A DNA stretch of 16,559 nt from Promethearchaeota archaeon. GTDB taxonomy: Archaea > Asgardarchaeota > Lokiarchaeia > Sigyniarchaeales > SOKP01. Shown piece after piece: positions 2,966 through 16,559 of the stretch (the stretch's first letter is position 1; each line of letters opens with the position of its first letter). The stretch lies in the NCBI GenBank assembly GCA_004524535.1, contig SDNY01000079.1, positions 1 to 16,559 of the forward strand, written 5' to 3'. Under the pieces are notes generated by a model, which was not told where the DNA came from, ran no database searches, and saw nothing but the letters and a program-made list of their open reading frames with translations. The position numbers and the translations under genes were made by a program.

Positions 2966-4909
2966 TCATCCTTTATTTTTATTACTATGAAAAAATACTG
3001 AAAAAGTAGAGCCTTTTCCGTACTCACTCTCAACAAATATTTTTCCATCATGAAATTGTGTTAGCTCCTTTGCAATAGCTAACCCCAGCCCCGTACCACT
3101 AATGTCCCTCACATCTTCTGACCTAAAAAACCGTTCAAATAATTTTGGTATTTCTTCCTTACGAATACCTCTTCCATAATCTTTGAATTGAAACAGAAGT
3201 CCCATAAATTCTTTAGAATCAGTAATATATTTGTAGTTTTCTATTGCTTTAATCTCAATCTTTGTATTCTCATGAGAATATTTTATCGCATTATCAATTA
3301 ATATCCGAAAGATCTCCTCAATAATACTTGAATCCCCAAATAATTGAATCCCTTTATGCACTTCAACTTCAATATTTATATTTTTCTCTTTTAGACGAGG
3401 TTCCATCAGATCTATAATTTCATGAATGACTTCCAATGGATAGAAATCTTTCCATTCAATTTTTAATTTTTCTTCATCAATTTTTGAAAGTGTGAGAATA
3501 TCCTCAACCAATTCATTAAGTGCTGTGATATTTCTAGAAAGTCCTTCTAATAATTTTTCCTCTACCTCTGGTGTGAGCTTCTGCTTTTGATTTTTTAAAT
3601 ATTCTATTGACATAATCAACACCGTTATAGGCGTCCGCAATTCATGGGAAACAGTTGAAACAAACTCCTCTAATTTTTGTTCTGCCTTTTTACGTTCAGT
3701 GATATCTCTCCCTACAACAACAATATATTTAAGATTACCTTCTTCATCATTTATATTTGTTCCAATATATTCAAAAGGGATCGATTTTCCATCTTTAGTG
3801 ATTAGGTTCATTTCAACTAAAGTTTTTCCTTCTTTTTTTACATCTTCAATTGCTACTGCTGCTTTTTTTAAATCTTCTTCGTTATAATATGAAATTGGTG
3901 CTGGCATTGAAGAAATTTCTTCATCACTATAACCGCTGACTTCTCTGAATGCTTTATTCCATATTAAAGCCTTTCCAGTAGATGGATCAAATATGAAGAA
4001 GGAGTCTCTCTGTGAGTTTAATGCAGTTTCGGTGAATCTTTTTTCTTCCCGTAGCGAAATTTCACTACGCTTTAATTTTCTAAATAAAAGATTAAAAGGA
4101 TTTTCTAGTCCAATTTCGATAATTGCTCTGTATAAGAGAAAGAATGCGACAATCTTAAAAAGGTGTCCGATTAAATTAGAGAGATCATAAGTGCTTACAT
4201 AAAAAGTGAAGGCCAACTCGGCAATCATTGTTGAAATGATTGAACCCACGATAAAAATAAATATTTTTTTGTTAAATTCTTTCCGAACTTTATACATTAT
4301 AAATACAGTCAAAAAAAGAATGGAAATGATTATATACTCACTGATAATCTTAAAGGGTGTCAATCCTGAACCTTCAATATAACAGTTAGGAAAAAGCCTA
4401 TTGAAAATTAGGAATATCAATAGAGAAGTAATAATTGTATATATAAGAATTAAATCATTTGTATTTACTTTTTTATTAACAACTAAAGCTGCATATAAAA
4501 AAGAAAAGGCTTGAAGATATCTCGCAGCAATCCACAGCTGTGTAGGAAGATTTGAACCGTATCCTGTAAATATTCCCATTCCAGTATAAGCTAGTGTGTG
4601 GAGTAAATCCATAAAGCCAATAAAAATAAATGATATGCCAACAACCAAAAAGAAAGAATTATCTATATTTTTTCGGCTATTCCATGCGATTACAAATATT
4701 CCGCCAGCAATAATAATACTAAATAGTTCAGCTATAGTATGGAAAAGAAGATAACTATAAAGAGAGGTTAAAGCTGTAGCTAATAAGATTAAAGAAAGAA
4801 TACCAAGCTCTATATAATCTTTTCTTATTCTAGATTGAACTCCTATGCTGTTGTTATTTACAATTTTATCTTCACTAACAAATTCAGAATTATCTCGTAG
4901 ATTTAACAT
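2966..4909 (-). CDS. Membrane sensor histidine kinase (MASE3-PAS-HisKA-HATPase)
   Basis: MASE3-type motifs FHTIAELFS, DLLHTLAY.GM, TQLWIAAR; PAS/PAC ending GRDITERK; H-box SHELRTP; N-box NAIKYS; G-boxes DYGRGI, GTGLGL. Confidence 0.93.
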   Translation of the reverse strand: MLNLRDNSEFVSEDKIVNNNSIGVQSRIRKDYIELGILSLILLATALTSLYSYLLFHTIAELFSIIIAGGIFVIAWNSRKNIDNSFFLVVGISFIFIGFMDLLHTLAYTGMGIFTGYGSNLPTQLWIAARYLQAFSFLYAALVVNKKVNTNDLILIYTIITSLLIFLIFNRLFPNCYIEGSGLTPFKIISEYIIISILFLTVFIMYKVRKEFNKKIFIFIVGSIISTMIAELAFTFYVSTYDLSNLIGHLFKIVAFFLLYRAIIEIGLENPFNLLFRKLKRSEISLREEKRFTETALNSQRDSFFIFDPSTGKALIWNKAFREVSGYSDEEISSMPAPISYYNEEDLKKAAVAIEDVKKEGKTLVEMNLITKDGKSIPFEYIGTNINDEEGNLKYIVVVGRDITERKKAEQKLEEFVSTVSHELRTPITVLIMSIEYLKNQKQKLTPEVEEKLLEGLSRNITALNELVEDILTLSKIDEEKLKIEWKDFYPLEVIHEIIDLMEPRLKEKNINIEVEVHKGIQLFGDSSIIEEIFRILIDNAIKYSHENTKIEIKAIENYKYITDSKEFMGLLFQFKDYGRGIRKEEIPKLFERFFRSEDVRDISGTGLGLAIAKELTQFHDGKIFVESEYGKGSTFSVFFHSNKNKG

Positions 4910-5820: not shown

Positions 5821-6786
5821 TTATATAAGAAATTTGCCCTCTTTTTGAATTAATTTTCCGTCAATTTCTATGGTGGTCTTATCCATAACTCCATCGTGAT
5901 GGATATTACTATATGTGTTCCCACCTATGTTTATATTCTTCCCGATAGCCAAGTGAGAAGTAGACTTCAAACATTTATCTCCTACAGTTCCAGTTGTATG
6001 CTTAACGGTGTGATTAGTCCCTATTCCCAACTCTGCAATGTTATTTCCATTCTCATCTGCTGCTTCGATAATCGCTCGTATCTTATCCGCTTCTTCAGCC
6101 CCTTCAATTTTCACTGCTCGTCCATTTTCAATTAATATATTTACGGGAGTTTTAATAGCACCAACTTTTTCGAAAAACACATCTATTATCCATATGCCTT
6201 GAGCAGTCCCCTCAACAGGAGCTATCGCCGCTTCTGAGTATTCAGGCACGGCCCCCCATGCTCCGGGAACAACATGTCTAACACTTAACGGAGCAGAAAT
6301 CCTATCCTTTATAGATAATACAACATCAGTACCTAAGTGAGTAGAAATTCTCGCTTCTTCCCCATTTGTTAATATTTCTGATAATTTTTCCGTTAATTCA
6401 GTAATTTCATACACATCTTCGCTCGTAATATTAGGGTTAATGTAAGGGACACCTCCTACTCTTGCCCCTGCATCTGTAGCTGCTCGCCTTGCATTCATAT
6501 GAAGAAATAGTTGTATCGTACTATAGGGTAGAACCCCTAAAATTACATTTGATTTAAGCATTTTCTGACTTACTTCTTCAGGGGGTTCTATTAGCATCTC
6601 TTTATTTGCATCTACATTAACTGTAGTTACTTCTGCACCTAAAGCCTCTGCTTCTTCAGCTAAAAGAACTGCATTTTTTTTAAAACCTCTTGAGGTGATA
6701 ATTAATACCTTTTCATTCGGTTTTATTCCCATGCATGTTTCCACAATAACCCGTGCTCCTTTTCTGTAATCTAATTTCTTACTCAT
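5821..6786 (-). CDS. Aminopeptidase T-like (peptidase M29-related) metallo-hydrolase
   Basis: IKPNEKVLIIT at the N-terminus; P..EAAIAPVEGTAQG, NIAELGIGTN, HLAIGKN...GG...SNIHHD; SD GGAGGT upstream. Confidence 0.85.
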   Translation of the reverse strand: MSKKLDYRKGARVIVETCMGIKPNEKVLIITSRGFKKNAVLLAEEAEALGAEVTTVNVDANKEMLIEPPEEVSQKMLKSNVILGVLPYSTIQLFLHMNARRAATDAGARVGGVPYINPNITSEDVYEITELTEKLSEILTNGEEARISTHLGTDVVLSIKDRISAPLSVRHVVPGAWGAVPEYSEAAIAPVEGTAQGIWIIDVFFEKVGAIKTPVNILIENGRAVKIEGAEEADKIRAIIEAADENGNNIAELGIGTNHTVKHTTGTVGDKCLKSTSHLAIGKNINIGGNTYSNIHHDGVMDKTTIEIDGKLIQKEGKFLI

Positions 6787-6950: not shown

Positions 6951-9230
6951 TTATATCGCTTTTGGAATTAAAACACTAAAATTAGAACCCTTCGTATAAT
7001 CCCCTTTTACTTTATTTTCGATCCAGATTTTTCCATTATAAATATCTATTAATTGTTTAACAAGCGATAATCCTATTCCCAATCCCCTTACCTTACCATT
7101 TCTTTTAGTTACTCTCTGGAATAATATATCTTTTCTTTCGTCTGGGATCCCAATTCCATTGTCTATGAATTCAAATTTTAAGTAATTTATATGATTTTTT
7201 TGCTCTTCAGAAATTTTAACTAGAATTTCAATTTCAGGATTTATGTTATGCTTTACGCCATTGATTAATATATTTTCAAAGAGATCCAATATGAGATCAT
7301 TTGCTTTAACAAAATATTTTTTACTTTGAGTATCAACTTCGATTTTAACTTTTCTACCTTGAAAACTCTTGTAGACAAATTTAATTGCATCCTCTAAAAT
7401 ACTGATAACTTCAATAGGTTCTGTCAATATTTCAGTTTCTTCAAGTTCAGATAATTTTATAATATTTGAAACAATGGATGCTCCTCTAAACACTTGTTTT
7501 GTAATTAAATTTAATAAATTTCTCCTATCTTTAAGATATTCGGGTTTATTTTGAAACATTGCATATAATTCTACAGATGATTGGATTGTTTGAAGTAAGT
7601 TATTCATATCATGAGCAATTAATTCTTTATAAAAGTTAGCCCGATCGTAAGCATTGCGATATTTATCTTCTGATTCTCGGAGATCCCTCTCGATTTTTTT
7701 TCTCTTAGTTATATCTCTCCCTACGGATACGATTAGAGGATCACCGTCTACACTTTTAAAAGTTCTTGCTGTATATTCAAATGGAATGCTACGACCATCT
7801 TTAGTAATAAGCGACATTTCAACAGTCGTTTTTTCCTCACTTAATACTTTTTCTATAGCTTTTGCTGCACATTTTAAATCTTCTTCACTATAATAAGAAT
7901 CAGGAGCTTTCAATGATGCAATCTCATCATCAGTATAACCAGTAATATCGCTAAAAGCTTTATTCCACTTTATGGCTCTCCCTGTTTGGGGTTCAAATAC
8001 GAAAATCGTATCAATTGAGGTATTTAATACATTATCAGTAAACTCTTTTATAGCTTTTAAAGCCTCATATGCGTTCTTTCTTTGTGTTATATCCTGAGCA
8101 ATAGCTATAACAAATATATTATCATCTTTCTTGATTATCGAACTTTGATAATTTATCCATGCTAAACTTCCATCCTTTTTTTTTATTTGGATTTCTATAG
8201 GCTTTAATTTTTTTCCTTCAAGAACATCCTTATATCTCTTTTTAAATAAGGAGATTTGTTCATTAGTGTAAATTCCAAGTTCCCTATATTTTTTGCCAAT
8301 AACTTCATCTCTATTATAACCATAAATTTTTTCAGTAGCAGGATTAACATCTAATATTGTCCCTTTTCTATTAACTAAAGTAATGGAATTAGGCGATTCC
8401 TCATATAAATGTCGGTATTTAGTTTCAGATTCTTTAAGTGCTTTTTCTATTTTTTTTCTATTAGAAATATCCCTAGAGACTCCCAATATTCCAATTGCGT
8501 TTCCATTTTCATTACGCATAAAGGTAATTGTCATCTCCACATCGATAATAGACCCATTTTTATGTATCTGCTCTGTTTCAAAGGTGCGAGAACGTATTAA
8601 ATCTTTATCTTTCTTTCTTTCCAATCTCATTTCTTCTTTAAAGATATTAACAATTTTTTTTAGGGAAGATGGGGCTACAGTCTTATTAATTGGTAGATTT
8701 TTGGCTTCCTTTATAGTATATCCGAGTATTTTTGGACATGAAGGGCTTATATATGTCAATTTTAAATTCATATCAGTTGTCCAAACAACATCATCTGCGT
8801 TTTCCGTAATTAATCGATATCTCTCTTCACTTTTTTTTAATTTTTGGTCAGCACGTTTTTGCTCAGTAATGTCTATGACAATTGCTCTTAAGCCTATAGG
8901 TTTATTTTCACGAATAATGAGACCTGTATAGACAAGAATAGGGAATGTAGTTCCATCTTTTCTCAAACCAGTATATTCGACACCATTTAACTTTTCTCTG
9001 TTTAATATTCTTAATATATTTTTCATCGCTCTATCATGATCTTCAGCAACAAGCACATCAAATACCTTCATACCTCTATTCAAATCTTCGGGGGTATAAC
9101 CAAATTTTTCGAACCCGATTTTATTAACATATGTGAATATGCCTTTATTATCAAGTTCGCAAATAATTTGAGGTAATAAATTAAGAATTTCGTCAAAATT
9201 ATTATCTTTTTCTTGTGTTTTTACTCCCAA
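6951..9230 (-). CDS. Cytoplasmic multi-PAS (4x) sensor histidine kinase
   Basis: Four PAS/PAC repeats ending DITEQK, DISNRK, DITQRK, DITKRK; H-box AHDMNN; N-box NGVKHN; DNGIGI and GLGIGL. Confidence 0.93.
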   Translation of the reverse strand: MGVKTQEKDNNFDEILNLLPQIICELDNKGIFTYVNKIGFEKFGYTPEDLNRGMKVFDVLVAEDHDRAMKNILRILNREKLNGVEYTGLRKDGTTFPILVYTGLIIRENKPIGLRAIVIDITEQKRADQKLKKSEERYRLITENADDVVWTTDMNLKLTYISPSCPKILGYTIKEAKNLPINKTVAPSSLKKIVNIFKEEMRLERKKDKDLIRSRTFETEQIHKNGSIIDVEMTITFMRNENGNAIGILGVSRDISNRKKIEKALKESETKYRHLYEESPNSITLVNRKGTILDVNPATEKIYGYNRDEVIGKKYRELGIYTNEQISLFKKRYKDVLEGKKLKPIEIQIKKKDGSLAWINYQSSIIKKDDNIFVIAIAQDITQRKNAYEALKAIKEFTDNVLNTSIDTIFVFEPQTGRAIKWNKAFSDITGYTDDEIASLKAPDSYYSEEDLKCAAKAIEKVLSEEKTTVEMSLITKDGRSIPFEYTARTFKSVDGDPLIVSVGRDITKRKKIERDLRESEDKYRNAYDRANFYKELIAHDMNNLLQTIQSSVELYAMFQNKPEYLKDRRNLLNLITKQVFRGASIVSNIIKLSELEETEILTEPIEVISILEDAIKFVYKSFQGRKVKIEVDTQSKKYFVKANDLILDLFENILINGVKHNINPEIEILVKISEEQKNHINYLKFEFIDNGIGIPDERKDILFQRVTKRNGKVRGLGIGLSLVKQLIDIYNGKIWIENKVKGDYTKGSNFSVLIPKAI

Positions 9231-14574: not shown

Positions 14575-15231
14575 TTACTTTTTTTCACCCTCAAGTTCTT
14601 TTAAAAAATATTCTGCTTCGACTTTTCCAAGTTCAAACGCTTCTAAATTTTTTTCTAAAGTGGCTTTTGGTACAAAATTTTTGATAGTCTCAATTGCCGC
14701 TTCCTCGGAGAAAATTTTTGAAAGAGCTGTAAACGCTCCAAATAGAATTGAATTCCCATACACTGTATCTTCAAATTTTTCTAATGCCATTCGCTGAACT
14801 GGTATGCGTAAAGATTTAAATTTTTTTGCTAGCCTGAATTTATTAATTGTGGAAGGATCCCATATTAAATAGCCGGTATTATCTCCTTCTTTCAAAGAAT
14901 CTCGTTTGATATCTTTAGCAGATTCCTCAGAAAGAACAATTAAAAAATCATAAGGCATTAAAGCTTTAGGATAATCTATTTGTTTTGTGTCTCTATCCAA
15001 ATCAACCACAACTTCAGCCCAACACCTTCCACCTTTTGCTAAATCATTCGTTTATAATGATTTTCTAGCAGCGGCACTGTAAGCTTCCGTTTGAGTCGCA
15101 GCTAAATTTTCATATATCGCACTTGCCATTGTTATCATTTTGCTGAGGGTAATAACGCATACCACTTCTAACTGAAGTAATTAGAAGACTTGGCCCCCAT
15201 ATCCAGCGATTCTAATTTCGTATCTTCTCAT
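14575..15231 (-). CDS. 2-oxoacid:ferredoxin oxidoreductase gamma subunit (KorC/PorG family), split into 3 predicted exons: 15231-15189, 15158-15065, 15034-14575
   Basis: Joined exons total 597 nt and give 198 aa: MRRYEIRIAGYGGQGVITLSKMI...TQTEAYSAAARGGRCWAEVVV...N.ILFGA...NLEAFELG. The ORF track only captured the third exon. Confidence 0.92.
15035..15064 (-). other. Predicted 30-nt BHB intron 2 in the gamma-subunit gene
   Basis: TGCT AG^A AAATCATT ATAAACG AATGATTT AGCA AA^A GG: 4-bp helix TGCT/AGCA, two 3-nt bulges, 8-bp inner stem, in-frame TAA at 15054-15052. Confidence 0.88.
15159..15188 (-). other. Predicted 30-nt BHB intron 1 in the gamma-subunit gene
   Basis: GCCA AG^T CTTCTAATT ACTTC AGTTAGAAG TGGT AT^G CG: 4-bp helix GCCA/TGGT, two 3-nt bulges, 9-bp inner stem, in-frame TAA at 15183-15181. 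Confidence 0.88.
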
Positions 15232-15367
15232 TTTTAATCAAAACATATTTAATCTTAATATTTATTATAATATGATAATCTTCAAAAATTTTTAAATTAA
15301 TTAATTCTTGCTAAATCTAAAATAATGAATTATTAACAAGAAAAAGGAAAAAAAATATAAAATATAA

Positions 15368-16137: not shown

Positions 16138-16410
16138 ATGGAAGAATTTAAAGTTAATGAGTATATTACGCTGAAATTAGAGGATGGAATAACCAATATC
16201 TATATAAAGGGAGATGACTATCCATATTTGCAATGTAAATATCTCTTAATGAGAAAAACTATCAATGAAATAAAAAATCTTACTGAAAATATAAAATCTA
16301 TCGATGAATTTGCTGAACATTTAGATCATTCATTAGATCCTTCATTAGAAACAGACGAACCTGATTTGATCGATATCCCTCATGAAACCGAATTCTGGGC
16401 ACATTGCTCT
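16138..16410 (+). CDS. 5' exon of a Lokiarchaeia multicopy-family protein (N-terminal domain often preceding leucine-rich repeats)
   Basis: 91 codons: MEEFKVNEYITLKLEDGITNIYIKG...QCKYLL...IKSIDEFAEHLD...ETEFWAHCS. From recall, the family continues NLQxW; here similarity stops at 16410. Confidence 0.75.
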
Positions 16411-16559
16411 GTGCGACATGAAAGCTGTATGGTTGAATGCGGAAACTTGAGAAATAACAATATGGTAAGTCTATCTTTGAATAGACACTCAAGAAGCCGA
16501 CCTCGAGATGGACGAGTGTGGCTACCCAAGCATGCGCCATTAGTAATGATGGTGTATGA
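16411..16559 (+). mobile_element. 5' end (domain I) of a probable group II intron, truncated by the window end
   Basis: Starts with the GUGYG consensus (GTGCGACATGAAAG) exactly where protein similarity breaks. GC content visibly rises. Stems GTCTAT/ATAGAC, AGCC..CTCG/CGAG..GGCT, and a 12-bp G-U-rich stem capped by a GNRA loop (GTAA) at 16531-16558. Confidence 0.78.

Follow-up and report, generated by a model that had tools for sequence, protein, structure and literature searches.

A putative mobile group IIB intron at a conserved codon boundary of a multicopy leucine-rich-repeat gene family in a lokiarchaeal genome

The last 149 nucleotides of the window, the whole 16,559-nucleotide stretch of Promethearchaeota archaeon DNA analyzed here, very probably represent the 5′ end of a mobile IIB group II intron inserted in a gene of a multicopy leucine-rich-repeat family. 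In the motif EFW(G/A)HCS|N(L/M)Q of the N-terminal domain, the intron would have entered after the Ser and before the Asn codon, in phase 0 and in sense orientation. A sequence-only reading of the same DNA had proposed a probable group II intron in the HCS|NLQ motif of a multicopy family, and this proposal is supported, with the junctions, the sister introns, and the domain V/VI matches all in agreement with it. The window corresponds to the entire contig C189 of the genome (G000), position 16559 being the contig end, and the contig appears to have been broken by the assembler inside the intron because the intron is repeated. The features of the window are collected in Table 1.

Table 1. Features at the 3′ end of the window (coordinates of the whole stretch)
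Feature	Coordinates	Strand	Remarks
Exon 1, 91 codons, ATG to ...EFWAHCS	16138..16410	+	Member of the multicopy family: N-terminal domain and leucine-rich repeats
Predicted IBS2, CTGGGC (Phe third base, Trp, first two bases of Ala)	16395..16400	+	Predicted from sister-copy EBS2
Predicted IBS1, TGCTCT (Cys and Ser codons)	16405..16410	+	Predicted from sister-copy EBS1 UGAGCA
5′ splice-site consensus GUGCG (GUGYG)	16411..16415	+	Direct reading
First 149 nt of group II intron (very probable), 5′ part of domain I	16411..16559	+	Cut by contig end
Hairpin with GUAA cap, domain I	16537..16552	+	CCATTA-GTAA-TGATGG; RF02012 match and compensatory changes

Exon 1, its 5′ junction and the intron fragment

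Direct reading of the + strand gives ...TTC TGG GCA CAT TGC TCT at 16393-16410 and then GTGCG at 16411-16415, confirming the coding end TGG GCA CAT TGC TCT followed by GTGCG in phase 0 that had been noticed earlier. The ORF starting at ATG 16138 is in phase 0 with this pentanucleotide, which recurs in 17 of 19 aligned relatives (GTGTG in the other two), and runs off the contig. At 16411-16559 the G+C content is 43.6%, compared with 30.0% for exon 1 and 29.8% for the window as a whole, in keeping with the GC-richer downstream sequence mentioned previously.

Over about 90 residues, exon 1 displays 52-61% identity to the N-termini of nine intact paralogues and 35-51% to those of seven others. In all 16 uninterrupted paralogues of the same genome, [HNY]-[CS]-S is followed by [NDT]-[LMI]-Q-x-[WF], whereas the window reads GTGCGACATG... 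after HCS, unlike the intact paralogues. By chance, the read-through frame (VRHESCMVEC...) meets no stop before the contig end; in none of the 16 intact paralogues does VRHESC follow, a continuation of homologues that the sequence-only reading had singled out as speaking against an intron. The insertion point separates a conserved N-terminal domain on one side from a variable leucine-rich-repeat part on the other. This N-terminal domain, for which Pfam yields zero matches, occurs in 62/68 sampled genomes of the same family, in 2/7 of a sister family, and in 1/21 of one other family, with several genomes carrying at least 12 matches, and was not found in the other 204 genomes sampled from the phylum. 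The same genome also contains short N-terminal pieces of family members, 27-52 codons long, at C105:1596-1727 (-), C19:2040-2153 (-), and C134:450-530 (+), one of them 95% identical to the paralogue C136; recombination or decay within the family may have left them behind.

The 149 nucleotides are 80% identical to the 5′ end of a complete intron from genome G013 (DXJM01000227), which belongs to the same GTDB family, and 82-90% identical to 13 metagenome copies. The GNRA-capped stem reported before is real (CCATTA-GTAA-TGATGG at 16537-16552), with double changes in five of its six pairs (alignment columns 129-144; one to seven sequences each), and the consensus fold of a 19-sequence alignment of relatives comprises 41 predicted pairs, of which 16 show a double change in one or more sequences. 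When the last 180 nt alone were compared with the Rfam model RF02012 (group-II-D1D4-7), the outcome was a 3′-truncated match at 16522-16559 with 17 bits and an E value of 0.093, the gathering score being 34. A full-window Rfam search at gathering thresholds gave zero matches, because a match to the D1-D4 model would pass the contig end and is truncated there; in the sister copies, which score 42.9-47.0 against this same gathering score (49.8 for the G013 intron), the match begins about 87 nt into the intron and spans about 89-135 nt. Domain V, an intron ORF, and EBS sequences are likewise absent within the window, where only 149 nt of the intron are present.

Sequence past the contig end is provided by run X1, possibly the source sample, in which 96% of the query words occur. 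One of its unitigs, 716 nt long, begins exactly at 16411, displays 0 differences over the shared 149 nt, and extends at least 567 nt past the contig end. Its depth is 149, compared with 39-60 for the exon unitigs; the threefold difference is only a hint of about three copies in X1, since Logan contigs and depths report neither copy number nor absence, and the uncovered X1 bins at 16247-16360 carry no meaning. Run X1 also contains a second 5′ junction, with a different exon.

A separate observation concerns the second, mechanistically different intron type that had been suspected within about 1.3 kb, for which two 30-nt in-frame insertions at about 15.0-15.2 kb are plausible. A 2-oxoacid:ferredoxin oxidoreductase gamma-like gene at 15232..14575 (-) is in one frame with two in-frame TAA stops and, compared with four genomes of the same genus, contains two exact 30-nt insertions, at 15159-15188 (-) and 15035-15064 (-), the removal of which restores GQ|GVITLS and AAR|GG. 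Each insertion can be folded into an outer helix, a 3′-strand bulge, a helix of 3-4 bp, a 3-nt 5′-strand bulge, and an inner helix, a relaxed bulge-helix-bulge shape, and neither has a second copy in the genome. Both are candidates for mini-introns that an endonuclease would splice from an mRNA.

3′ ends in the same genome, complete relatives and the intron protein

When the portions of the paralogues beyond HCS were used as queries against the genome, two orphan second exons came to light, both at contig ends (C95:249-458 and C94:9176-8964), facing one assembled 5′ junction. Each directly adjoins a domain V/VI: of the four RF00029 matches in the genome, two lie at C95:172-248 and C94:9253-9177 and the other two on contig C114. 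The C95 and C94 matches cover the full model with 59.9 bits (cut-off 40), and each ends in ...CTACTCGAC (...CUACUCGAC, ...CTACCTACTCGAC; final bases CTCGAC) immediately before the exon 2 codons, AAT ATG CAA GTA TGG on C95 and AAT CTT CAA GCG TGG on C94. Exon 2 is in frame from C95:249 (NMQVW..., 360 codons, containing leucine-rich repeats by LRR_14, 7e-42) and comprises 77 codons on C94 (NLQAW...). Upstream, C95:3-50 encodes VWERKGYEEIQHATI-stop, the last 15 codons of the intron protein C-terminus, and C95:106-254 is 78% identical to the 3′ end of the G013 intron.

All the checks suggested by the sequence-only reading that could be carried out gave favourable results, including (i) domain V/VI followed by NLQxW-type codons, present on both contigs as N-[ML]-Q-x-W; (ii) a 3′ AY, here ...GAC; (iii) an RT/maturase ORF, found in the sister copies and, for its last 15 codons, on C95; and (iv) the same insertion in paralogues, namely on C95, on C94, and in ten metagenome genes. 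The domain V AGC triad, the bulged A of domain VI in CUAC, and the GUGCG...AC ends are intact across C95, C94, and eight complete sister copies. Neither the interior of the intron nor the protein of this lineage is present on any contig of the genome: blastn with the 149 nt gives only two diverged C114 introns (68-78% identity), and tblastn with a sister intron protein only the two C114 proteins (59% and 40%).

Judging by sequence likeness, the domain V/VI and exon 2 on C95 probably belong to the window's copy or to a near-identical one. Window exon 1 and C95 exon 2 find their best matches in the two exons of a single metagenome gene, L028. The paralogue C54_27533 is 87% identical at its start to the query's first 145 bases (beginning 38 nt upstream of the ATG) and 62% identical to C95 exon 2, the remaining paralogues reaching at most 41%. 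As judged from its 3′ end, C94 is a second group II-interrupted paralogue in the same genome, with the same intron.

Complete relatives comprise the G013 element (L018, G013:C88 1235-3531, -), 2,297 nt long with RF02012 and RF00029 matches and a 487-aa RT ORF, and the copies retrieved by an exact-pattern scan of JGI metagenome contigs, which gave 13 contigs. Ten of the 13 introns directly follow ...[EI]FW[GA]H[CS]S, with 92-639 open codons upstream; two (L025 and L030) lie in target-like DNA with stops 7-8 codons upstream, and one, L031, occupies an unrelated site and is itself a twintron. Both intron ends are present on eight contigs, including six introns of 2,312-2,324 nt, one ORF-less intron of 845 nt, and the nested L031. 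A complete copy lies at L028:2896-5219. Beyond the 3′ end, N-[LMI]-Q resumes in six of the eight; another contig stops after AATTT, the first 5 nt of exon 2, and the last is L031. All eight pass the gathering scores of RF00029 and RF02012. The ORF-less derivative (L029:6792-7636) sits at the same HCS|NMQ site, where it still matches both Rfam models and retains part of the intron ORF, its host being a very long family member with a second exon open for 2,202 codons.

The sister intron proteins (504-505 aa) comprise RVT_N, RVT_1, and GIIM above Pfam cut-offs with YADD intact, and Pfam finds no HNH/En domain in them; YADD and full length are kept in seven of the nine introns examined. Their scores against TIGR04416, 285 and 271 bits, lie below the cut-off of 300. 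The best PDB relative is 6me0_C (1e-77), which we take to be the Thermosynechococcus TeI4h IIB particle, compared with 2e-28 for IIC, 1e-26 for LtrA (IIA), and 2e-26 for GsI-IIC. By PDB likeness, by the EBS3-IBS3 covariation described below, and by the lack of HNH/En, the protein appears most like the chloroplast-like (CL) class.

A scan for the intron protein in 185,579 representative genomes gave six loci with 58-61% identity, none of them an insertion in the leucine-rich-repeat family; these loci served as out-lineages in the EBS covariation test. Among species representatives, the 5′ junction pattern occurs in 1/160 genomes of the class and the 3′ pattern in 1/134 genomes of the family, in both cases the genome under study only, and therefore the association may be rare or lost in binning. 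Nesting within the wider group is seen at G000:C114:4154-8724 (-) (L009), a twintron in which a second group II intron lies about 560 nt into another. The inner intron has its 5′ end at 8162, domain V/VI at 5857-5933, and a 486-aa ORF, and the outer one has its 5′ end near 8724, domain V/VI at 4154-4230, and a 485-aa ORF. The nesting recurs in the relatives L031 and G023:C36 (G023, CAZGJX010000036, also belongs to the GTDB family of the window's genome).

Target recognition and spread between paralogues

The EBS region of the window's copy lies beyond 16559, and its pairings were placed in relatives, using an alignment of 20 nt of exon and 380 nt of intron from 12 introns, comprising seven copies in the leucine-rich-repeat family and five inserted elsewhere (G013, L034, L038, L036, and the inner C114 intron). 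EBS1, a terminal-loop hexamer located some 310 nt inside the intron, is the partner of exon positions -6..-1. Of the 72 cells, 88.9% pair, a level reached in 0/500 shuffles; the shuffled value is 53.4%, and sliding by one to three columns gives 33-47%. Double changes are found in all six pairs. EBS3 is the variable column in GGGGGA-N-AG and forms a Watson-Crick pair with the first 3′-exon base in 12/12 introns, as U-A, A-U, or G-C. Reading the 3′ exon by means of EBS3 is typical of IIB and IIC introns (PMC4424553). EBS2, about 250 nt into the intron, pairs around -16..-11, with the intron's own exon on top, outright or tied, in five of seven lineages, and is, as far as the alignment goes, the weakest-supported of the three predicted pairings. 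In the sister copies, EBS2 GCCCAA or GCCCAG pairs with -16..-11 (-17..-11 in four copies), and the column changes with the target elsewhere. EBS1, EBS2, and EBS3 have thus been placed by covariation in relatives, in line with the suggestion that EBS1/EBS2 be complementary to the exon end.

Translated into codons, the target consists of (i) (Y)TGGGC, read by EBS2 GCCCA(A/G) of the leucine-rich-repeat lineage and covering the end of a Phe codon, a Trp codon, and the start of a Gly or Ala codon; (ii) TG(C/U)UC(N), the Cys and Ser codons, read by sister-copy EBS1 UGAGCA at -6..-2 and also at -1 if this base is A or G; and (iii) the A of the Asn codon, read by the EBS3 U of the same lineage. The exon end in the window pairs at 6/6 positions with EBS2 GCCCAG and at 5/6 with EBS1, the T at -1, a synonymous base, being unpaired with sister-copy EBS1.

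An initial guess for EBS1, GGGGGAUAG, in which GGAAAG pairs perfectly with the G013 exon, was rejected: it is the 3′ strand of a conserved stem and contains EBS3. The G013 intron itself lies in non-coding DNA, where EBS2 and EBS3 fit and the EBS1 loop, GGUCAG, pairs with the 5′ exon at 4/6 positions; GGUCAG also occurs in its own exon at -12..-7. The G013 copy may be an ectopic insertion.

Empty paralogues offer an abundant target. A is found at +1 in 15 of 16, and 13/16 pair at no fewer than five of six positions with both EBS1 and one EBS2 variant, G-U counted; the conserved motif thus provides many homing sites, most of them pairing like the occupied one, as the sequence-only reading had expected. 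Only 2-3 of about 19 family members in the genome are occupied, and spread seems to be limited by something beyond target availability.

Evidence of spread comes from paralogues that share an intron and little else. The 3′ ends of the C95 and C94 introns are identical at 145/146 positions, compared with 127/231 nt and 33/77 aa in their exons. Pairwise comparison of the window and 12 metagenome copies (L031 left aside), after dropping 12 pairs with L025, which has too little upstream sequence, leaves 66 pairs, nine of which display at least 97% identity in the first 120 intron bases and only 61-67% in the 120 exon bases upstream of the target. Near-identical introns in paralogues with flanks only about 62% identical therefore indicate recent homing, not gene duplication.

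The proposed mechanism starts with a host gene transcribed together with the intron, the ribozyme presumably being aided in splicing by the intron-encoded protein. The rest of the window's copy, or a near-identical one, would end at C95 bases 1-248, where the gene resumes with NMQVW..., and joining of the exons at ...CATTGCTCT|AATATGCAA... would give back a protein about 451 aa long. After excision, the RNP would reverse-splice into empty paralogues recognized by base pairing, (Y)TGGGC being bound by EBS2, TGYTC(N) by EBS1, and the A of AAY by the U of EBS3. The intron protein carries no En domain, and priming is therefore probably from replication forks. The interior of the window's copy, the linkage of C189 with C95, splicing, and present-day mobility are what we infer from these comparisons. 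One further step, that the lineage is a resident, splicing-dependent intron of a single expanded family, retrohoming to the same phase-0 boundary in successive paralogues, can be offered tentatively and is on balance doubtful.

Alternative readings, known systems and significance

The main competitor, itself rather unlikely, accepts a complete intron in the gene and holds that it splices inefficiently, so that one redundant paralogue would recently have been knocked out and the intron would not be a tolerated one. The near-identity of the copies makes them young, and intact flanking ORFs consequently tell little about selection; RmInt1 splices poorly in its natural host according to part of PMC5894124, and the low occupancy of the family, with most empty sites pairing about equally, points the same way. 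The sole RNA contig, 196 nt from the metatranscriptome run X9 over 16361-16522, crosses the unspliced junction of a relative, with 13 differences, three of them in the last 11 exon bases, and may stem from precursor RNA or DNA carry-over; no spliced RNA turned up. Set against this are the intact catalytic domains and GUGCG...AC ends on C95, C94, and all eight complete sister copies, the full-length intron proteins with YADD in seven of nine, and ten metagenome insertions in open frames. It is also unlikely, and a little more so, that exon 1 pairs with another second exon, either that of C94 or an unassembled one, with C95 as a third interrupted paralogue. The excess of orphan second exons over assembled 5′ junctions would fit, as would the second 5′ junction in X1 and an intron unitig about three times deeper than the exon unitigs; however, the C94 exon is of the short 77-aa type nearest to C186 and C187, the N-termini of which are only 35-41% identical to exon 1, whereas exon 1 and C95 exon 2 share their best match, L028, and the paralogue whose start resembles the query is the closest relative of C95 exon 2.

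That the 149 nt are a truncated, dead 5′ fragment in a pseudogene that never resumes is very improbable. Most bacterial group II copies are truncated or inactivated, according to part of PMC4424553, and the window itself holds nothing of the intron beyond this fragment, but the X1 unitig continues without differences well past the contig end, the same genome contains matching 3′ ends after which exons resume, and exon 1 is intact from its ATG. An assembly chimera would be suggested by the position at a contig end of a metagenome-assembled genome with 4.4% estimated contamination; it has next to no probability, given that the same junction at the same codon recurs in 10 independent metagenome contigs with different exons and that the X1 unitig breaks precisely where exon meets intron, the pattern that a repeat with several different left flanks should give. 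The preferred reading thus remains the 5′ end of a mobile IIB intron in a gene of the leucine-rich-repeat family.

Three known systems resemble the one proposed here. In TeI3/TeI4 of Thermosynechococcus elongatus (CL class, IIB), as described in parts of PMC2882425, near-identical copies have spread within the genome, ORF-less deletion derivatives (here the 845-nt L029) and twintrons (here C114 and L031) occur, targets are recognized mainly through EBS/IBS pairing, and few introns lie within genes; in contrast, a single lineage here occupies a single target, a conserved coding motif of a host family, in an Asgard host. RmInt1 of Sinorhizobium meliloti (class D, IIB) likewise retrohomes to a multicopy target, ISRm2011-2, with 4-13 copies, and has an intron protein without an endonuclease domain (PMC5894124, in part), but its target is an insertion sequence and not a host protein family, its intron protein is of another class, and its host is bacterial. 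Methanosarcina group II introns share an archaeal host and nesting in related introns (here C114, L031, and G023); as Dai and Zimmerly reportedly described in 2003, they home into the ORFs of other introns or into non-coding DNA, whereas 10/13 relatives here interrupt an open host frame at one codon position.

Group II introns in Asgard archaea are already known; the unusual feature is the fixed niche in a coding motif of a multicopy family. Vosseberg and Snel (2017, PMC5709842) document them for Loki- and Heimdallarchaeal genomes, and excerpts of Mattick et al. 2024 (10.1101/2024.12.10.627823) give generally one or two copies per Asgard genome and argue that an in-gene intron is costly under coupled transcription-translation; most bacterial group II introns are located outside housekeeping genes (PMC4424553, in part). 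The terms 'insertion site', 'leucine-rich', and 'paralog' are absent from the main text of 10.1101/2024.12.10.627823 in the form available, and its supplements may list loci. The papers searched on Asgard/Lokiarchaeota group II introns contain no report of the HCS|N site niche; Asgard intron loci may be listed in the supplements to Mattick 2024 and Miura 2022.

The lineage occupies one codon boundary in at least two paralogues of one genome and in ten genes of other samples. In metagenome-assembled genomes, genes of this kind fall apart onto separate contigs, and annotation will present them as truncated. The family offers a natural system for asking whether an Asgard cell splices a group II intron from mRNA and what an insertion costs.

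Spliceosomal introns are presumed to descend from group II introns, and among prokaryotes the Asgard archaea are the nearest relatives of eukaryotes known. If the proposed cycle of repeated retrohoming is true, identical 2.3-kb introns could act as recombination sites, reshuffling N-terminal and leucine-rich-repeat modules, and the family would be a living prokaryotic case of parallel intron gain at homologous positions of paralogues in the closest archaeal relatives of eukaryotes. It raises the question whether intron positions shared between paralogues reflect repeated homing to a 'proto-splice' motif or an intron-bearing ancestor, a choice between repeated homing and common descent that bears on reconstructions of early eukaryotic introns.
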